From Candidatus Omnitrophota bacterium (GTDB taxonomy: Bacteria; Omnitrophota; Gorgyraeia; VGKH01), in assembly GCA_043819095.1 (NCBI GenBank), contig JBDRFF010000020.1:101890-161755 (forward strand): a stretch of DNA of 59,866 bases, read 5' to 3'. Under the pieces are notes generated by a model that saw only the letters and a list, made by a program, of their open reading frames with translations, was not told the origin of the DNA and searched no databases. Numbering within the stretch: the stretch's first letter is position 1; every line of letters starts with the position of its first letter. Below are positions 7,026-44,569 of the stretch, one piece after another. A program made the translations under genes and the position numbers.

Positions 7026-7158
7026 AATGAGTCCCGACGATACGTCGGGACGAATTGATCCCCCACCACTTTTCGTAATCCCCATCACAATAAAAGTGGT
7101 GGGGGATAATTCCGACAGCAACTTATGTTCACTTTGTTCCATAAGTTGCGTCGTCATT
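7026..7158. repeat. Three-hairpin interspersed element, copy A
   Basis: AATGAG-stem-CGAA / CCCCCACCACTTTT..AAAAGTGGTGGGGG / inverted arm ending GTCATT. Confidence 0.88.
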
Positions 7159-7196
7159 ATAAACAGGGTGCCAAAGGCGTTTCTAGCCCGGGTTGG

Positions 7197-7727
7197 TTAT
7201 TTTTTCCACATACCTCTATTATTTTCTTTTGCTTCCTGATGCAGCTTCTCAAATAAATCAGCGTATTTTGTATTGGGCGGCTCGGCTATTGGCTTAGCGT
7301 AGCCAGCTGCTATGATTGTGGCATTTATAAAAAAATAAAATTTATCGCCCAATCCTTGCGTATAATCTACCTCGCGCATTTTCTCCCTGTCAACCTCGTA
7401 ATAGATATAAGCCAATAACCTTCCGGATTTATCCCGCTTCTGGACATCGAACTCGAGCCTCACCTTTATATTAGCATCGACTTCTAATTCTTTAATAAAA
7501 TCTCTTGCCTCTTTAGCCATCTCTGTATCAGCCTTAGGCGCAACTATACCTATCAATTTTACTGTCTCACCATTCTCAAGTTCAAGCGTATCCCCGCTAA
7601 TTACTTTGGTGACTTTGATGTTATCATAGTTGGGAGATGCTTTGGTGGTTGCATCTTGTGCTAAGCAAATAGTTGTGTTTCCGCAGAGAAACAGTCCCAA
7701 AGCCATCAATAAAAACAATCTTTTCAT
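7197..7727 (-). CDS. Thermonuclease (SNase-like) family secreted protein
   Basis: Signal peptide; VISGDT, VKLIGI, RDKSGRLLAY, GYAK, AKENNRGMW. Confidence 0.85.
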   Translation of the reverse strand: MKRLFLLMALGLFLCGNTTICLAQDATTKASPNYDNIKVTKVISGDTLELENGETVKLIGIVAPKADTEMAKEARDFIKELEVDANIKVRLEFDVQKRDKSGRLLAYIYYEVDREKMREVDYTQGLGDKFYFFINATIIAAGYAKPIAEPPNTKYADLFEKLHQEAKENNRGMWKK

Positions 7728-9331
7728 ATTTTTTCCTTTGTCCCGTTTTTAGATCCTTTGCCCGCTTTTTTCAAATGCTTTCTTGCTGACTGTAATCTTT
7801 GGGAAAATGGATCTTTTTCAAATGCTCTAGACCATTTCTTCATAGTAATCCATCCGCCAAAACGAACCAAGGCATTGCGCCAGGGCTGATACCATCTCTT
7901 CCACTCTGATTTGATATTATACAAAAAGAACAATAAAGCCGGAAACCATAAAATGTGTAAACCGATTATAAACATATATTTAAACTGATAAAACTTACCC
8001 ATAATTTTTCTAATCGCATCCTGCATCTGCTCTGCAGTTAAGGGCTCATCAGGCTCAAACAGCGGAAAATTTCCGTCGTAATACTGCCAGCCCACGTCAT
8101 CAAGCGGATAAATCCTGTTCTGCTCCTTTAACCTTTGCCTTAATCTTGTCCCGGGAAGCGGCCCTGCCAATAAAACCTGTATTGTATCAATCTTGGCTTT
8201 TTTGATAAATTCCTTAAAGCGCTTTATACGCTGGGCTACCGGCATACTGAATTTCACATCTTCTTTCATGGGATAGCCGAAGATAAACATACCGTGGACC
8301 AAAAACCTAAATTTATGGAATATCTTTGCATTGGCGATCATGTCTTCTGGGCTTAAGTGTTTGTTCATCGCCTCTAATTCTTCTTGGATAGGCGACTCAA
8401 AACCAATGGCTACTGAGTCAATACCTGCCTGGCGCATAGCAAAAAGTAATTGGGGATCTTTAGCCTTATCCAATCTTATCTGGACAGTTATATCCAGTCT
8501 TCTACCAGTACTTTTTTGATAATCCCTAAGCATATTACAGAACCTTATTGTCTCATCCCTTTGTTGTCCAAAAAGGTCATCAACGATAAAAAAATGTCTG
8601 GCATCCTTAGTTTCTGAAAGATTACTCATTAGTTCAAGCAACCGTTCAGGTGGGGCATATCTGGGTTTGCCTTTAACAGCGCAGAACTCGCAATCCATAC
8701 CGCAACCTCGTATTCTTTCAACAGGATAAATTTTAATCTTGGCGTAGCGCACTAAGGAAAAATCCGGGAGGGGAAATTTATCAAAATCTGTTATTGGGTT
8801 TCTGTCAGAGGTACGGATAATTTTTCCGTTCTCTAAATAGGCTATGCCTTTGACATCGCGCAAATTCTTTTTGCCTTCTATTGCCTCCAGGAGCTCTTTG
8901 ATGGTCTCTTCTGCCTCTCCCATAACCAGATAATCTATGCCGCAAGTTAGGCCTTCGGCAATATTATCTTCGAGGAAATGCTGGCCTCCGGCAATAGTTG
9001 TGGCTCCTTTGGATTTGTAAAACCGGGCTAATTGATAAAGCCGCGGGATAGTACTGGTGAGTCCGCCGTAGAATCCTACGACATCTGTAGGTCTTATGTT
9101 TTGTAAGAATTCGTGGTCAGCGCCGCCAGAATCAGATTTGGGCCCATATCGACGAAGATTATTTTCATCAATAACCTCAACATCCCAGTTCTCCATTTTA
9201 TTGACCACGCTAGCCACGCATACCGGACCTAAGGCCGTAGTCTTACTGGCAATAAAAGAATAAACATTAAATGCCGGATAAGCCGGCACGATAATCCTTA
9301 ATCTGTGTCTTTTTTTGGATAAGTCTAACAT
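7724..9331 (-). CDS. B12-binding-domain radical SAM protein
   Basis: RGCGMDCEFC (CxxxCxxC), N-terminal AGGQH/GEAE B12-like domain, GFES, PGT. Confidence 0.88.
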   Translation of the reverse strand: MLDLSKKRHRLRIIVPAYPAFNVYSFIASKTTALGPVCVASVVNKMENWDVEVIDENNLRRYGPKSDSGGADHEFLQNIRPTDVVGFYGGLTSTIPRLYQLARFYKSKGATTIAGGQHFLEDNIAEGLTCGIDYLVMGEAEETIKELLEAIEGKKNLRDVKGIAYLENGKIIRTSDRNPITDFDKFPLPDFSLVRYAKIKIYPVERIRGCGMDCEFCAVKGKPRYAPPERLLELMSNLSETKDARHFFIVDDLFGQQRDETIRFCNMLRDYQKSTGRRLDITVQIRLDKAKDPQLLFAMRQAGIDSVAIGFESPIQEELEAMNKHLSPEDMIANAKIFHKFRFLVHGMFIFGYPMKEDVKFSMPVAQRIKRFKEFIKKAKIDTIQVLLAGPLPGTRLRQRLKEQNRIYPLDDVGWQYYDGNFPLFEPDEPLTAEQMQDAIRKIMGKFYQFKYMFIIGLHILWFPALLFFLYNIKSEWKRWYQPWRNALVRFGGWITMKKWSRAFEKDPFSQRLQSARKHLKKAGKGSKNGTKEKI

Positions 9332-9379
9332 TCGATTATTTAGTTCTTAAGGATGTTTCCCGGTCCGTTCCCCGAATTC

Positions 9380-9584
9380 AATGAGCGCACGATTTATGGA
9401 GCGAAACGACATAAATCGTTTGCGCGAATTGATCCCCCCTTCTTGCTTTCGCCCCGAGAAATGCGAAGCATTTCCGGGACTCAGTCCTTGAAATCGCATT
9501 CGCGATTTCTAAGGGCAAGAAAGCAGGGGGGATAATTCCGACAGCAACTTATGTTCACTTTATTCCATAAGTTGCGTCGTCATT
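9380..9584. repeat. Three-hairpin element, copy B (with nested extra hairpins)
   Basis: Right arm nearly identical to copy A; central stem like copy F with a ~60 bp insert; overlaps the acr3 stop codon. Confidence 0.88.
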
Positions 9585-10665
9585 ATGCTCGAAACAGATG
9601 TTTAGTCCTCAAGCAGACCCTTACCAGCAAAAGCATAACCGGTACCTCGATTAATACGCCCACCACAGTAGCCAAGGATGCTCCTGACGAGAGCCCGAAA
9701 AGCATTGTAGAAGTAGCGATTGCCACTTCAAAATGATTGCTTGCGCCAATAAGCGCAGAAGGCGCTGCATCTCTATAGGGCAGCTTTAACCACTTCGCCA
9801 TTGCATAGGTTAAAGCAAAAATAATGCAAGTCTGGATAAAAAGCGGCACAGCGATTAAAAAAATTACCTGCGGCTGATTGATAATCAGCTCGCCTTTAAA
9901 AGAAAATAATAAAACAAGCGTAACCAGCAGCGCAGCGATAGAAACCGGAGTCAAATTATGGAGAAACCGCTCTTGGAACCATTCAAAACCTTTCTTGGCA
10001 ATAATCCATTTCCGCGTATGGTATCCTAAAAAAAGCGGCAATCCTACATAGATTACGACGGATAAAACAATCGTCTGCCAGGGAATAGGCATTCTATTGA
10101 CTCCCAACAGCCAGCTGCCTAAAGGAGCATAGAGAAATAGCATCGTAAGTGAATTAATCGCTACCATAACAAGGGTGTGCCCGTCGTTGCCTTTGGATAG
10201 ATGTCCCCAGATAAGCACCATTGCAGTGCAGGGCGCGATCCCTAATAAAATGCAGCCGGAAATATAAGACCTGTATAATTCTACCTGCTGGCCCCCTTTG
10301 ACAATCTCAAGGCCGGGAAGCCAGCCTTTAAAAAATACTCCCAAAAACAGACTCGCAATAACCAGCATAGTAAAAGGCTTGATGCACCAATTGATAATTA
10401 ATGTAAGGATAACCGGTTTGGGTGTCTTGCCTGCTTTTATGACTTCGGCGAAGTCGATCTTCACCATAATAGGATACATCATGAAAAAAAGACATATCGC
10501 TATGGGGATTGACACCTGGTAGATTGATATCTTATCTAAAGTGAGGGCTACCTGGGGAAGGAGTTTTCCCAGCAGAATACCGAAACCAATGCAACCTATA
10601 ACCCAAAGCGTCAGGTATTTTTCAAAACAACTTAATCTTAGTTCCTCGTGAATAACTTTTTCCAT
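9583..10665 (-). CDS. acr3: Acr3 family arsenite efflux transporter
   Basis: [40 protein letters not shown]; likely start ATG 10665 (alternative TTG 10689). Confidence 0.93.
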
Positions 10666-43664: not shown

Positions 43665-43734
43665 GCACCCTGATTTTCTTTACCCCTGATTTATGCGTCT
43701 TGATACTGTAGACCGCAGTATCCAAAACTTTAAT

Positions 43735-43900
43735 ATATAGGCAGGTCTTCTGGCTCTTGGATCAATCTACTCTCCGCGCCTTCTCGGTCCATTTGGACCA
43801 ATGGCCTCCTGCGGATTTCGTCCCCAATCACAGCGGCGGGACCGCGTCTGCTTCAAACAACAGACTTCCCTGTCAGGCTAAAACTATATAGCACCTATAT
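43735..43900 (-). ncRNA. Cobalamin riboswitch
   Basis: AGGTGC..AGGGAAGTCTG..GCGGTCCCGCCGCTGTGA..GCCATTGG..GAGAAGGC..GAGCCAGAAGACCTGCCT (B12 box). Confidence 0.93.
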
Positions 43901-43904
43901 AGGA

Positions 43905-44411
43905 CTAATTTTTTAAAAGAACAGTGGCAAGACGAGTATTCTTAACTCGTTTTGCAATCAACTCATATGCTCCGAATAATACCGTTGAATAAACAAGCGT
44001 CGATAGAACCATATGTCGGAAAAATGGAATCGCCATCACATAACAATTTATGAGTCCTTCGAAAGTATGGGTATACCAACCAACCAGCCATACGCCGAAA
44101 TTAGTAATCAAAAAGAATAAAACTGCCGAAAGCAAAGACGATCCTGCAACAGTCAAAGCAGATTTTCGTTTCTTTTGGGTTATTCCTAAAACAGTAATCA
44201 AAATAACGCTGCCCCAGGTAAAAGCAACTACCCCGTGAAGTCCTAAAAATAAATCAGTGATAATCATTAGAGATAAAGGAATCAGTATAGCATATTTTTT
44301 ATTTAAATAAAAACCGCTAAATAAAGCAATTGCCACAACTGGCGTGAAATTCGGGACATGCGGAATGAATCTCATTGCTATTCCTAATAATATTAATGCG
44401 ATTGCTAACAT
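43905..44411 (-). CDS. DUF6580/ECF S-component-like membrane protein (possible B12 transporter)
   Basis: RFIPHVPNFTP, FFLITNFGVW, AIPFF; ATG 44411 with AAGGAGG; context. Confidence 0.72.
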   Translation of the reverse strand: MLAIALILLGIAMRFIPHVPNFTPVVAIALFSGFYLNKKYAILIPLSLMIITDLFLGLHGVVAFTWGSVILITVLGITQKKRKSALTVAGSSLLSAVLFFLITNFGVWLVGWYTHTFEGLINCYVMAIPFFRHMVLSTLVYSTVLFGAYELIAKRVKNTRLATVLLKN

Positions 44412-44424
44412 ATTTTCCTCCTTC

Positions 44425-44569
44425 AATGAGCGCACAATTTACGGAACGATAGTAAACGTAAATTGTCTGCGCGAAATGGTCCCCCCTTCTTGCTTTCGCA
44501 AGAAAGCAGGGGGGACAAATTCAGCCAACAAACTTATGTTCACTGCGTTCCATAAGTTTGGGCTTTATT
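44425..44569. repeat. Three-hairpin element, copy F
   Basis: AATGAGCGCA-CAATTTACG..CGTAAATTG-TC-TGCGCGAA; CCCCCC..GGGGGG stem; inverted arm. Confidence 0.88.

Follow-up and report, generated by a model that had tools for sequence, protein, structure and literature searches.

A stretch of 59,866 nucleotides from a Candidatus Omnitrophota bacterium (GenBank assembly GCA_043819095.1, contig JBDRFF010000020.1, positions 101,890 to 161,755 of the forward strand), hereafter the window, raises the question of what is repeated six times between its positions 7026 and 44569. The repeats consist of hairpins whose sequences change while their pairing is kept, and an earlier note on this DNA had taken them for a family of recombination or transposition sites encoded in structure. 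All six copies that it described are present (e1 to e6 in order of position: 7026–7158, 9380–9584, 15568–15678, 22107–22293, 39450–39632, and 44425–44569). The elements are read here, tentatively and at somewhat under an even chance, as a structure-defined mosaic repeat similar to bacterial interspersed mosaic elements (BIMEs), which are built from repetitive extragenic palindromes (REPs), and to REP doublets forming hairpins (REPINs). Such a repeat would be recognized as folded single strands on both DNA strands. We infer that the logic of the family is that of REP, BIME, and REPIN elements rather than that of an RNA gene. Two observations go beyond the earlier note: the elements point toward genes, with one class of arm abutting the Shine–Dalgarno (SD) sequence, and the family is phylum-wide. 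Omnitrophota have not been cultured, depend on hosts, and are very small, with compact genomes; tens to more than 100 copies of an elaborate fold in most of these genomes were therefore unexpected.

Structure of the arms and covariation of their stems

Ten full arms of the window were aligned and used to build a covariance model, R1, with 62 positions and 19 pairs. The arm is a hairpin of about 60 nt that reads 5'-S0-GA-S1-S2-GGA..loop..GA(A)-S2'-bulge-S1'-GA-S0'-3' and is bracketed by AATGA(G)...(C)GAATT. S0 is an outer helix of 5–8 bp (e.g., TTCAAT/ATTGAA), S1 has 5 bp, and S2 has 9 bp with the conserved core ..CTTAYGG/CRTAAG... Between S0 and S1, a tandem GA sits opposite GA; this second such motif of the arm, like the outer helix, is new compared with the earlier description. 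The apical region starts with GGA and ends with GA(A), and a bulge of 1–2 nt, mostly T (81 of 112 arms), is found on the 3' side between S2' and S1'. A full element joins arm B, through a central module of hairpins that is in most cases C-run...G-run, to an arm A in inverted orientation; arm A comes first on the + strand of the window copies. The purine motifs and the bulge fall on opposite DNA strands in the two arms of an element. In a kink-turn, a bulge of 3 nt stands directly 5' of tandem G.A/A.G pairs; the arm does not fit this arrangement, its bulge of 1–2 nt being on the other side, at a distance of 5 bp from the GA/GA step.

In the ten window arms, 95.3% of the pair cells were paired compared with 77.9% in shuffles, and none of 500 shuffles was as high; 11 of the 19 pairs had changed on both sides, and slid controls reached at most 34.7%. 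A strict arm pattern gave four matches in the window, while 0.00 were expected from 100 shuffles. Genome-wide, the pairing in 112 arms aligned to R1 was 94.4%, compared with 75.0% in shuffles and at most 33% in slid controls, with double changes at 17 of the 19 pairs, 459 double-changed cells, and none of 500 shuffles reaching any of five measures. Fitting an alignment to the model itself favors the structure; nevertheless, the covariation is beyond doubt because of the effect size and the slid controls. Moreover, 87 pairs of arms with at least 90% stem identity contained 52 double changes from one Watson–Crick pair to another and 74 single changes. Paired changes among such similar arms require that pairing is strongly selected or, alternatively, that mismatches are corrected inside a hairpin that is truly formed. 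The earlier claim of a structure-defined, strand-symmetric family is supported, and the covariation is real on 10 and on 112 arms.

The arms were sorted into class A (n = 51), antisense to the gene, and class B (n = 61), sense to the gene. The GA/GA motifs, GGA, and the side of the bulge were equally conserved in both classes, the A arms standing on the template strand of the downstream gene. The pairing was strictly Watson–Crick: of 2016 stem cells in the 112 arms, 24 were G:T or T:G and 22 were A:C or C:A, and this split was 12 versus 11 in the antisense arms and again 12 versus 11 in the sense arms. G:U makes up approximately 1.2% of stem cells. Recognition on both strands is suggested because the asymmetric motifs are equally kept in A and B arms and because no wobble preference was found, while an RNA read from one strand should show G:U commonly and A:C rarely. 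As support for a DNA-level reading, the wobble test is suggestive but not decisive; the equality rests on 46 mismatched cells, and recent unselected mutations would give the same.

The two arms within an element were identical in their stems in none of 46 cases, and their stem identity (0.60) was below that of random pairs (0.66), as was their S1 identity (0.35 versus 0.50). With arms that resemble each other less than randomly chosen ones do, an element cannot fold into one long hairpin. This unlikeness favors three local hairpins, as in the predicted fold, which is closed by the AATGA/TCATT ends and has −62.8 kcal/mol (z −10.6) as DNA and −105.6 kcal/mol (z −7.65) as RNA of the coding strand.

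Family size, mosaic composition, and distribution

The host draft genome has 1.06 Mb in 56 contigs, 39% G+C, and 75% completeness. Searching it by blastn with the six copies yielded 65 loci, a hidden Markov model of the arm yielded 110 matches, and R1 at E ≤ 1e-3 yielded 119 arms. When arms on the + and − strands were paired, 40 composites (128–419 bp) and 26 solo arms were obtained. Classes A and B were inverted relative to each other in all 40 composites, and all copies in this genome were intergenic.

No two full elements were more than 86% identical. Modules recur across copies, as in the B arms of e1 and e2, which are 98% alike, and the outer central stem that e2 and e6 share. On contig C50, arm A is followed in three places (L133; 3950–4110, 5960–6100, and 6895–7020) by an alternative multi-hairpin module of about 130 nt, starting CCCCTGCTCAATCCGAAGGATTG, which replaces the usual C-run/G-run hairpin and arm B. 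Only 15 of the 112 arms had a partner with identical stems. Given how few such partners there are and that near-identical full copies are absent, nothing points to a recent burst from a single master copy.

The relatives comprised 40 genomes (G001–G040) spread over 38 families of the class, or 41 with the host genome. R1 matched in 34 of the 40, with 1 to 127 matches per genome, and found none in G007, G008, G018, G031, G032, and G036. Beyond the class, 151 Candidatus Omnitrophota genomes were sampled with R1 at E ≤ 1e-6. Arms were present in at least 90 of them, at least 45 of which belong to other classes; at most 35 candidates were scored per genome, and the counts are lower bounds. Related loci matched by the LeuA of the window were deposited under the name Candidatus Omnitrophota or, in some cases, as uncultured Planctomycetia. 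In viral contigs, 57 pattern matches were rejected as chance matches, none being confirmed by R1, and a plasmid collection searched by blastn with e2 gave no match.

The earlier note had recognized no known family in the elements, and Rfam agrees with it. At gathering score, the window matched only a cobalamin riboswitch and three tRNAs, with no match to the elements, and a permissive scan of e2 gave only chance matches to miRNA hairpins far below gathering score. No description of such Omnitrophota repeats was found in the literature searched, which included the available part of a 2026 preprint on complete Omnitrophota genomes, now numbering roughly 200 (10.64898/2026.06.07.730766); supplements could hold annotations.

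Placement of the elements at gene starts

In the sense of the mRNA, an element runs from arm B (sense) through the central hairpin to arm A (antisense) and on to CTCATT|(R)AAGGAGG-N5-9-ATG; on the opposite strand, CCTCCTT and then the start codon come after the outer end of arm A. The CTCATT|(R)AAGGAGG junction recurs, with a gap of 0–4 nt between arm and SD. A start codon of an open reading frame (ORF) of at least 70 aa was found within 24 nt of exactly one end in 36 of the 40 composites and at both ends in none, and a looser ORF rule allowed 39 of the 40 to be oriented toward a gene. Approximately 13 of the 40 were intercistronic, with a co-directional stop within 70 nt of the B end, and the others were situated in longer upstream regions. 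Arms from other families and classes obeyed the same orientation rule. Judged from its placement against the SD or sometimes the start codon, the element would form a 5' untranslated region (5'UTR) or an intercistronic spacer.

Six starts in the host genome follow arm A by 1–8 nt without an SD (C7:40600, C16:449, C35:6856, C9:4040, C7:34221, and C8:10391). The only purine-rich stretch near them is the G-run just 5' of the arm hairpin.

Transcription signals were also scanned. Between positions 6800 and 22500 of the window, 38 promoter-like sites were found with 38.9 expected, and no central hairpin was flagged as an intrinsic terminator. Of 39 composites, 9 had promoter-like sites upstream of arm B, compared with 12% of shuffles, a weak enrichment; in six of the nine matches, the −10 ends 1–12 nt before the arm. 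The outer S0 of some B arms forms or adjoins a TATAAT-like hexamer (window 7156–7161 and 9582–9587, and several B-arm flanks in the host genome).

Given the gene-pointing orientation and the phylum-wide spread, an RNA-level or translation-linked role is a serious alternative to a pure recombination site. The main rival explanation, which is possible but stands well below an even chance, is a cis element at the RNA level, in which hairpins of the leader or spacer would insulate, stabilize, or process the mRNA or control the access of ribosomes. The C-run could be an anti-SD and the G-run an anti-anti-SD, and sense arm B, in which GA and GGA are conserved, could be a protein- or ligand-binding domain. 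The orientation of the composites, shared with other classes, the recurrent junction, and the six starts close to an arm without an SD all agree with this explanation. So do the strong RNA fold, the 94% pairing kept although copies differ by at least 14%, and the ilvC–leuA site described below, where four lineages have retained a seven-codon copy of the ilvC tail in frame ahead of leuA, changed chiefly at third positions. However, arm A, although antisense in the mRNA, retains GA, GGA, and the bulge on the template strand as well as arm B does, and there was no excess of G:U on either strand. The lack of an Rfam match and of terminator calls for the central hairpins also stands against it, and a shared ligand is unlikely because the downstream genes are unrelated (cdaA-like, radical SAM, leuA, and fba-like).

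The DNA-level and RNA-level readings are not exclusive, as insertions in start regions will be transcribed and selection on the mRNA would decide which copies and orientations persist. It is also possible, though well below an even chance, that the hairpins form a phylum-wide, host-maintained, strand-symmetric (cruciform) system at translation starts that is read by a protein on both strands. This would amount to a new mode of insertion at the ribosome-binding site, with the start region duplicated to a variable extent, or to a regulatory or architectural layer on approximately 5% of genes.

Turnover of sites and duplication of flanking sequence

The earlier note had pointed to pfkA–fba and ilvC–leuA as sites that might be empty in relatives, and neither turned out to be fixed. 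In the pfkA–fba spacer, an element was found directly upstream of the fba-like gene in the host genome, G001, and G021, and the elements of the host genome and G001 had quite different stems and central hairpins. The spacer was empty in G002 (45 nt; same genus as G001, protein 80% identical) and in eight other relatives. Because G002 has 6–7 extra bases there, the comparison of filled and empty sites is not clean, and no exact target was readable. Arm counts also differed within this genus, with 127 in G001 versus 25 in G002.

Directly upstream of leuA, an arm was found in only 3 of 80 related loci, and in 10 of the 80, ilvC ended 0–10 nt before the leuA start (...ATGATGCCNTGGATG......TAATATG). 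In the window and in three related loci (L091, L027, and L037), arm A and a central hairpin without arm B lie between ilvC and leuA. The right arm of this window copy, e3 (15568–15678), which the earlier note had called degenerate, is thus absent. The insert is flanked in all four by a direct repeat of the last ~24 nt of ilvC. According to the ORF table, the true 3' end of ilvC in the window, ATGATGCCGTGGATGCGTAAGTGA (15674–15697, − strand), is the upstream copy of this repeat. The duplicate, ATGATGCCTTGGATGCGCAAATAA (15543–15566, − strand), reads MMPWMRK* and separates arm A from the start codon of leuA at 15541. In each lineage, MMPWM(R/K)K-stop can still be read in the downstream copy, whose end coincides with the leuA start, and most differences between lineages are at third positions. 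This seven-codon mini-ORF, in frame before leuA (also at 2955–2985 of L091, 2985–3008 of L027, and ~1130–1153 of L037), lacks its own SD and may have kept translation coupled after the insertion.

The four ilvC–leuA arms differ by compensated changes, with S1 being GGCCA, GCACA, GCCCA, and GCACA and S2 being CAACTTATGG, TAACTTATGG, CAGCTTACGG, and TCACTTACGG. In L031, a different hairpin insert, which is not an R1 arm, lies ~100 nt upstream of leuA together with an ilvC-tail duplication of the same type (ATGCCTTGGATGAGGAAGTAG). A quick single-gene LeuA tree was built with FastTree (midpoint root, all 81 rows kept, support values not considered), and on it the five duplicated states were scattered among abutting and other states. 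Either a like insertion may have occurred repeatedly or one old insertion may have been repeatedly and precisely lost by recombination between the 24-nt repeats. An old insertion would make this site direct evidence that compensatory changes evolved in place. In G001 and G002, ilvC was not beside leuA, and they offered no empty site for e3. A small ORF of ~60 codons was seen between ilvC and leuA in L207 (G002, C1:361850–362300), where the window has e3.

Elsewhere in the host genome, a 17-nt duplication (AAGGGGGAATATYATGT) covering the SD to ATG was found on both sides of C53_2460, a 22-nt duplication from the SD to past the start codon flanked C2_5729, and a 12-nt duplication with one gap flanked C6_34322. 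Flank repeats exceeded the 99th percentile of permuted pairs in 3 of 39 composites, with 0.4 expected, while only generic SD-like sequence recurred at the flanks of the remaining composites. No target duplication of fixed length was found among the 39; the lengths seen were ~4, 8, 12, 17, 22, and 24 nt. Duplication of the start region thus happens occasionally and with variable length; a long target duplication as a general rule was rejected on the count of 3 in 39.

These flanks bear on an origin as a MITE (miniature inverted-repeat transposable element), derived from an insertion sequence (IS) and moved in trans by a DDE-type transposase. Such an element would have AAGG/GGAGG-like targets, and a short duplication would rebuild the SD on the gene side. 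Its inverted ends, length of 130–420 bp, intergenic position, and presence or absence between congeners resemble what was found, and AGG, AAGG, or GGAGG often stands before the B end and (R)AAGGAGG after the A end (C15_61302, C20_7043, C36, C46_836, L004, and L008). However, the AGG in front of arm B also extends S0 by pairing with the C-run and so was not necessarily copied from a target, and each end is a hairpin whose stems covary, a feature that DDE ends can do without. Moreover, the two ends of one element are never alike, the duplication has no fixed length, only a single orientation occurs, and no IS with such ends was found in the host genome or the loci examined. This origin is therefore considered improbable.

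Search for a mobilizing enzyme

The earlier note had proposed looking for copies that flank an HUH transposase or a tyrosine recombinase, and no such link was found. In the host genome, a 75% complete draft, neither Y1_Tnp nor TnpB was matched, and the three tyrosine recombinases (two Xer-like and one integrase) were not near arms. Among the 41 genomes, 33 had Y1 genes (PF01797). With NF047646, the NCBI model of the REP-associated tyrosine transposase (RAYT), RAYT-like genes were called in 33 of the 41 at E ≤ 1e-10 and in 15 above the curated cut-off of 80 bits, one G001 protein scoring 85.7 bits. None of 20 RAYT-like loci and none of 9 other Y1 loci without an IS200-type end in the relatives had an arm within ~1.5 kb, and the RAYT-like loci had no GA-bracketed hairpins and no consistent flanking hairpins of any kind. 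The presence of Y1 genes tracked that of arms loosely, since three of six arm-less genomes had Y1 genes and 5 of 35 arm-bearing genomes had none. Of the earlier proposal of a recombination or transposition site family, the structure, the strand symmetry, and the non-fixed sites stand, and an association with a transposase or recombinase was not supported by the loci searched.

The RAYT-like Y1 genes of the relatives (G001–G040; e.g., L214–L233) are multi-copy, with up to seven per genome, and often have open frames of 220–350 aa; their lack of flanking hairpin repeats is unusual for REP-associated transposases. The sole arm near a Y1 gene was found in L094 (G029:C35, 1–620), beside an IS200-like element with GC-rich end hairpins of its own. 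This IS200-like element adjoins arm A and the SD of the next gene, has a second identical copy on the same contig, and may have inserted into an element of the present family.

The strict form of the REP explanation, in which arms are REPs and elements are REPINs or BIMEs mobilized by the RAYT-like Y1 transposases of the phylum, is quite unlikely in view of these loci. The RAYT-like genes are widespread, the genome with 127 arms has one while that with 25 (G002) has no match, and inverted hairpins with linker modules are arranged as in BIMEs. Nevertheless, in addition to the empty surroundings of the RAYT-like loci and the loose tracking, the genes are multi-copy, the arms have neither a GTAG nor a CGTC tag and are about twice as long as a REP, and the two arms cannot pair with each other. 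RAYT or IS200 as a mover by membership was rejected because no arms stand beside these 29 Y1 loci; action in trans is compatible with the data.

A spread that needs no enzyme is less likely still. Here, the hairpins would stall replication, and the nascent strand would switch template between SD microhomologies, copying the element together with the SD junction. The single orientation, the SD junction, the SD-like sequence found at either flank, and duplications of varying length would follow from such copying, and modules are indeed shuffled between copies. However, it leaves unexplained the phylum-wide conservation of GA, GGA, and bulge on both strands and the persistent pairing of the stems. 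Integron attC-like recombination sites, which share the single-strand fold with a bulged base, the conserved structure at low sequence conservation, and the location between genes, are barely credible: the flanks are syntenic housekeeping genes (ilvC–leuA and pfkA–fba), the tyrosine recombinases are all far from arms, the AATGA/TCATT ends are unlike the R boxes of attC, and each element has three hairpins with arms on opposite strands.

Proposed mechanism and its significance

In the BIME/REPIN-like reading, a protein would recognize the arms on both strands, either as hairpins of single-stranded DNA or as an extruded cruciform, and this recognition of folded arms would underlie the spread of the family, its maintenance, or both. 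The elements would be, or would have been, mobile and would enter at or next to the ribosome-binding site. Once inserted, they would be transcribed as a 5'UTR or intercistronic spacer, and this may filter which insertions and orientations survive.

Several results weigh against this mechanism. No mobilizer was found in the host genome, and the RAYT-like and other Y1 loci of the relatives lacked arms and, in the case of the RAYT-like loci, any consistent hairpins. Near-identical full copies were absent, flank duplications were scarce, and their length was not fixed. The strict orientation and the SD junction of 0–4 nt are explained by a role in mRNA or translation no less well than by a choice of target, and the small number of mismatched cells limits the balance of G:T and A:C in the way stated above. 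Moreover, if the ilvC–leuA element is orthologous in the four lineages, it has long been kept with compensated stems, which points to selection at the level of the host more than to selfish turnover.

The family has several uses and consequences. Within single genomes, it supplies an extensive natural data set on compensatory change, from which it can be learned how hairpins stay paired in DNA or RNA. For annotation, one small covariance model suffices to recognize these repeats in Omnitrophota genomes. The ribosome-binding site may be a new target rule for small mobile DNA, and a binding protein, if it exists, would be a phylum-wide factor acting at gene starts.

The six copies in the window and their neighbors

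R1 found ten arms in the window and no seventh locus. The left arm of e1 (7026–7056, + strand), which escapes R1, was read directly and with a GA-bracket finder; it consists of S0, GA, one 9-bp hairpin, GA, and S0' without S2, and the earlier note was correct in calling it a simple hairpin. It is followed by a central C-run/G-run hairpin (7060–7105) and the B arm (7102–7161, − strand; 72.1 bits with R1, as for the scores that follow). In e2, the A arm (9377–9436, + strand; 74.3 bits) and the B arm (9528–9587, − strand; 70.1 bits), the latter matching the e1 B arm in its stems and assigned to repeat family D2, enclose a central module (9434–9531) in which sequence and folds indicate an outer C-run/G-run stem around two inner hairpins. 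The A arm of e3 (15565–15626, + strand; 79.9 bits) is the top-scoring arm of the genome, and its central hairpin (15624–15658, + strand) is bracketed by GA/GA (CCC-GA-stem...stem-GA-GGG), as read from the sequence and by the GA-bracket finder.

The remaining three copies each have a central C-run/G-run hairpin, identified from the sequence. In e4, this hairpin (22164–22236) lies between an A arm upstream of the fba-like gene (22104–22166, + strand; 72 bits) and a B arm adjoining the pfkA stop (22233–22296, − strand; 68 bits). Both arms of e5 carry additions, namely, a small hairpin between S2' and S1' of the A arm (39447–39522, + strand; 50.5 bits) and a hairpin inserted in the apical loop of the B arm (39563–39635, − strand; 64.8 bits), with the central hairpin at 39520–39566. 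The A arm of e6 (44422–44483, + strand; 73.8 bits) abuts GGAGGAAAATATG of the downstream gene with its outer end; the central hairpin (44481–44514), with the outer stem common to e2, belongs to repeat families D3 and D14, and the B arm follows (44512–44572, − strand; 69.8 bits).

The genes downstream of the window copies are cdaA-like, B12/radical-SAM, leuA, fba-like, and two small genes, and those upstream include ilvC, pfkA, an ACR3 transporter, and cobA. The cobalamin riboswitch (110 bits; 43723–43913, − strand) is located just downstream of the small gene that follows e6, and the three tRNA genes are clustered at 31004–31265 (− strand). A conserved 69-nt stretch (repeat family D1) occurs at the ends of three genes (10635–10703, 12465–12533, and 13104–13172). 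These stretches are probably paralogous C-termini or N-termini of neighboring genes and unrelated to the elements.

Comparison with known systems

The folded single strand is the accepted recognition unit of REPs and BIMEs. BIMEs of Enterobacteria and Pseudomonas, which occupy transcribed spacers, resemble the present family in being abundant extragenic hairpins of two inverted classes that form mosaics with few linker modules (in part from the available portion of PMC2817692). Descriptively, the elements belong with this class: A and B arms are inverted in the 40 composites, linkers recur, the copies are intergenic, and transcription is predicted from their placement. According to the available part of PMC3733652, a REP is a palindrome of 20–40 nt with a GTAG or CGTC tag. 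In contrast, the Omnitrophota arms have ~60 nt, three helices, two tandem GA/GA motifs, a bulge, and no tag; their stems differ between nearly all copies within one genome; and the element abuts the SD in one orientation. Unlike in REP/RAYT systems, no RAYT gene flanked by the arms was found among the 20 RAYT-like and 9 other Y1 loci.

REPINs likewise have inverted hairpin units round a spacer, are non-autonomous, and persist vertically across large clades, as described in the available parts of PMC3116915, PMC3337134, and 10.1101/2021.07.10.451892. However, the halves of a REPIN are copies that form one long hairpin, while those of an Omnitrophota element are less alike than random arms, and no master sequence dominates, given the few arms with an identical-stem partner. 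The pneumococcal BOX elements (boxA-boxB-boxC) are also modular in three parts and fold strongly. Found close to gene starts and within operons, they are cotranscribed with neighboring genes and can change downstream expression (PMC3049150, available part). They are unrelated in sequence and host phylum, and the same part of that source describes for them no GA-bracketed hairpins, strict SD junction, or phylum-wide spread.

The Correia elements of Neisseria and other IS-derived MITEs share inverted ends, a length of 100–400 bp, and an intergenic position, often in 5'UTRs, and the Correia hairpin in mRNA is a target of processing (PMC3049150, available part). In a MITE, each end is simply the inverted repeat of the other and the target duplication is fixed, whereas the ends here are unlike, covarying hairpins and no fixed duplication was found.

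In the subterminal hairpins of IS200/IS605 and in attC, as may be the case for the Omnitrophota arms, the recognition unit is a folded single strand with an extrahelical base. At IS200/IS605 (PATE-like) ends, the left and right hairpins share one strand and enclose tnpA, while the arm motifs stand on opposite strands in 40 of 40 composites; attC sites are single hairpins beside cassette genes and intI, an arrangement not present at the Omnitrophota elements. What distinguishes the family from all of these is the combination of an elaborate arm with two GA/GA steps and a bulge, extreme stem diversity within a genome, strict Watson–Crick pairing, placement at the ribosome-binding site, and phylum-wide spread.

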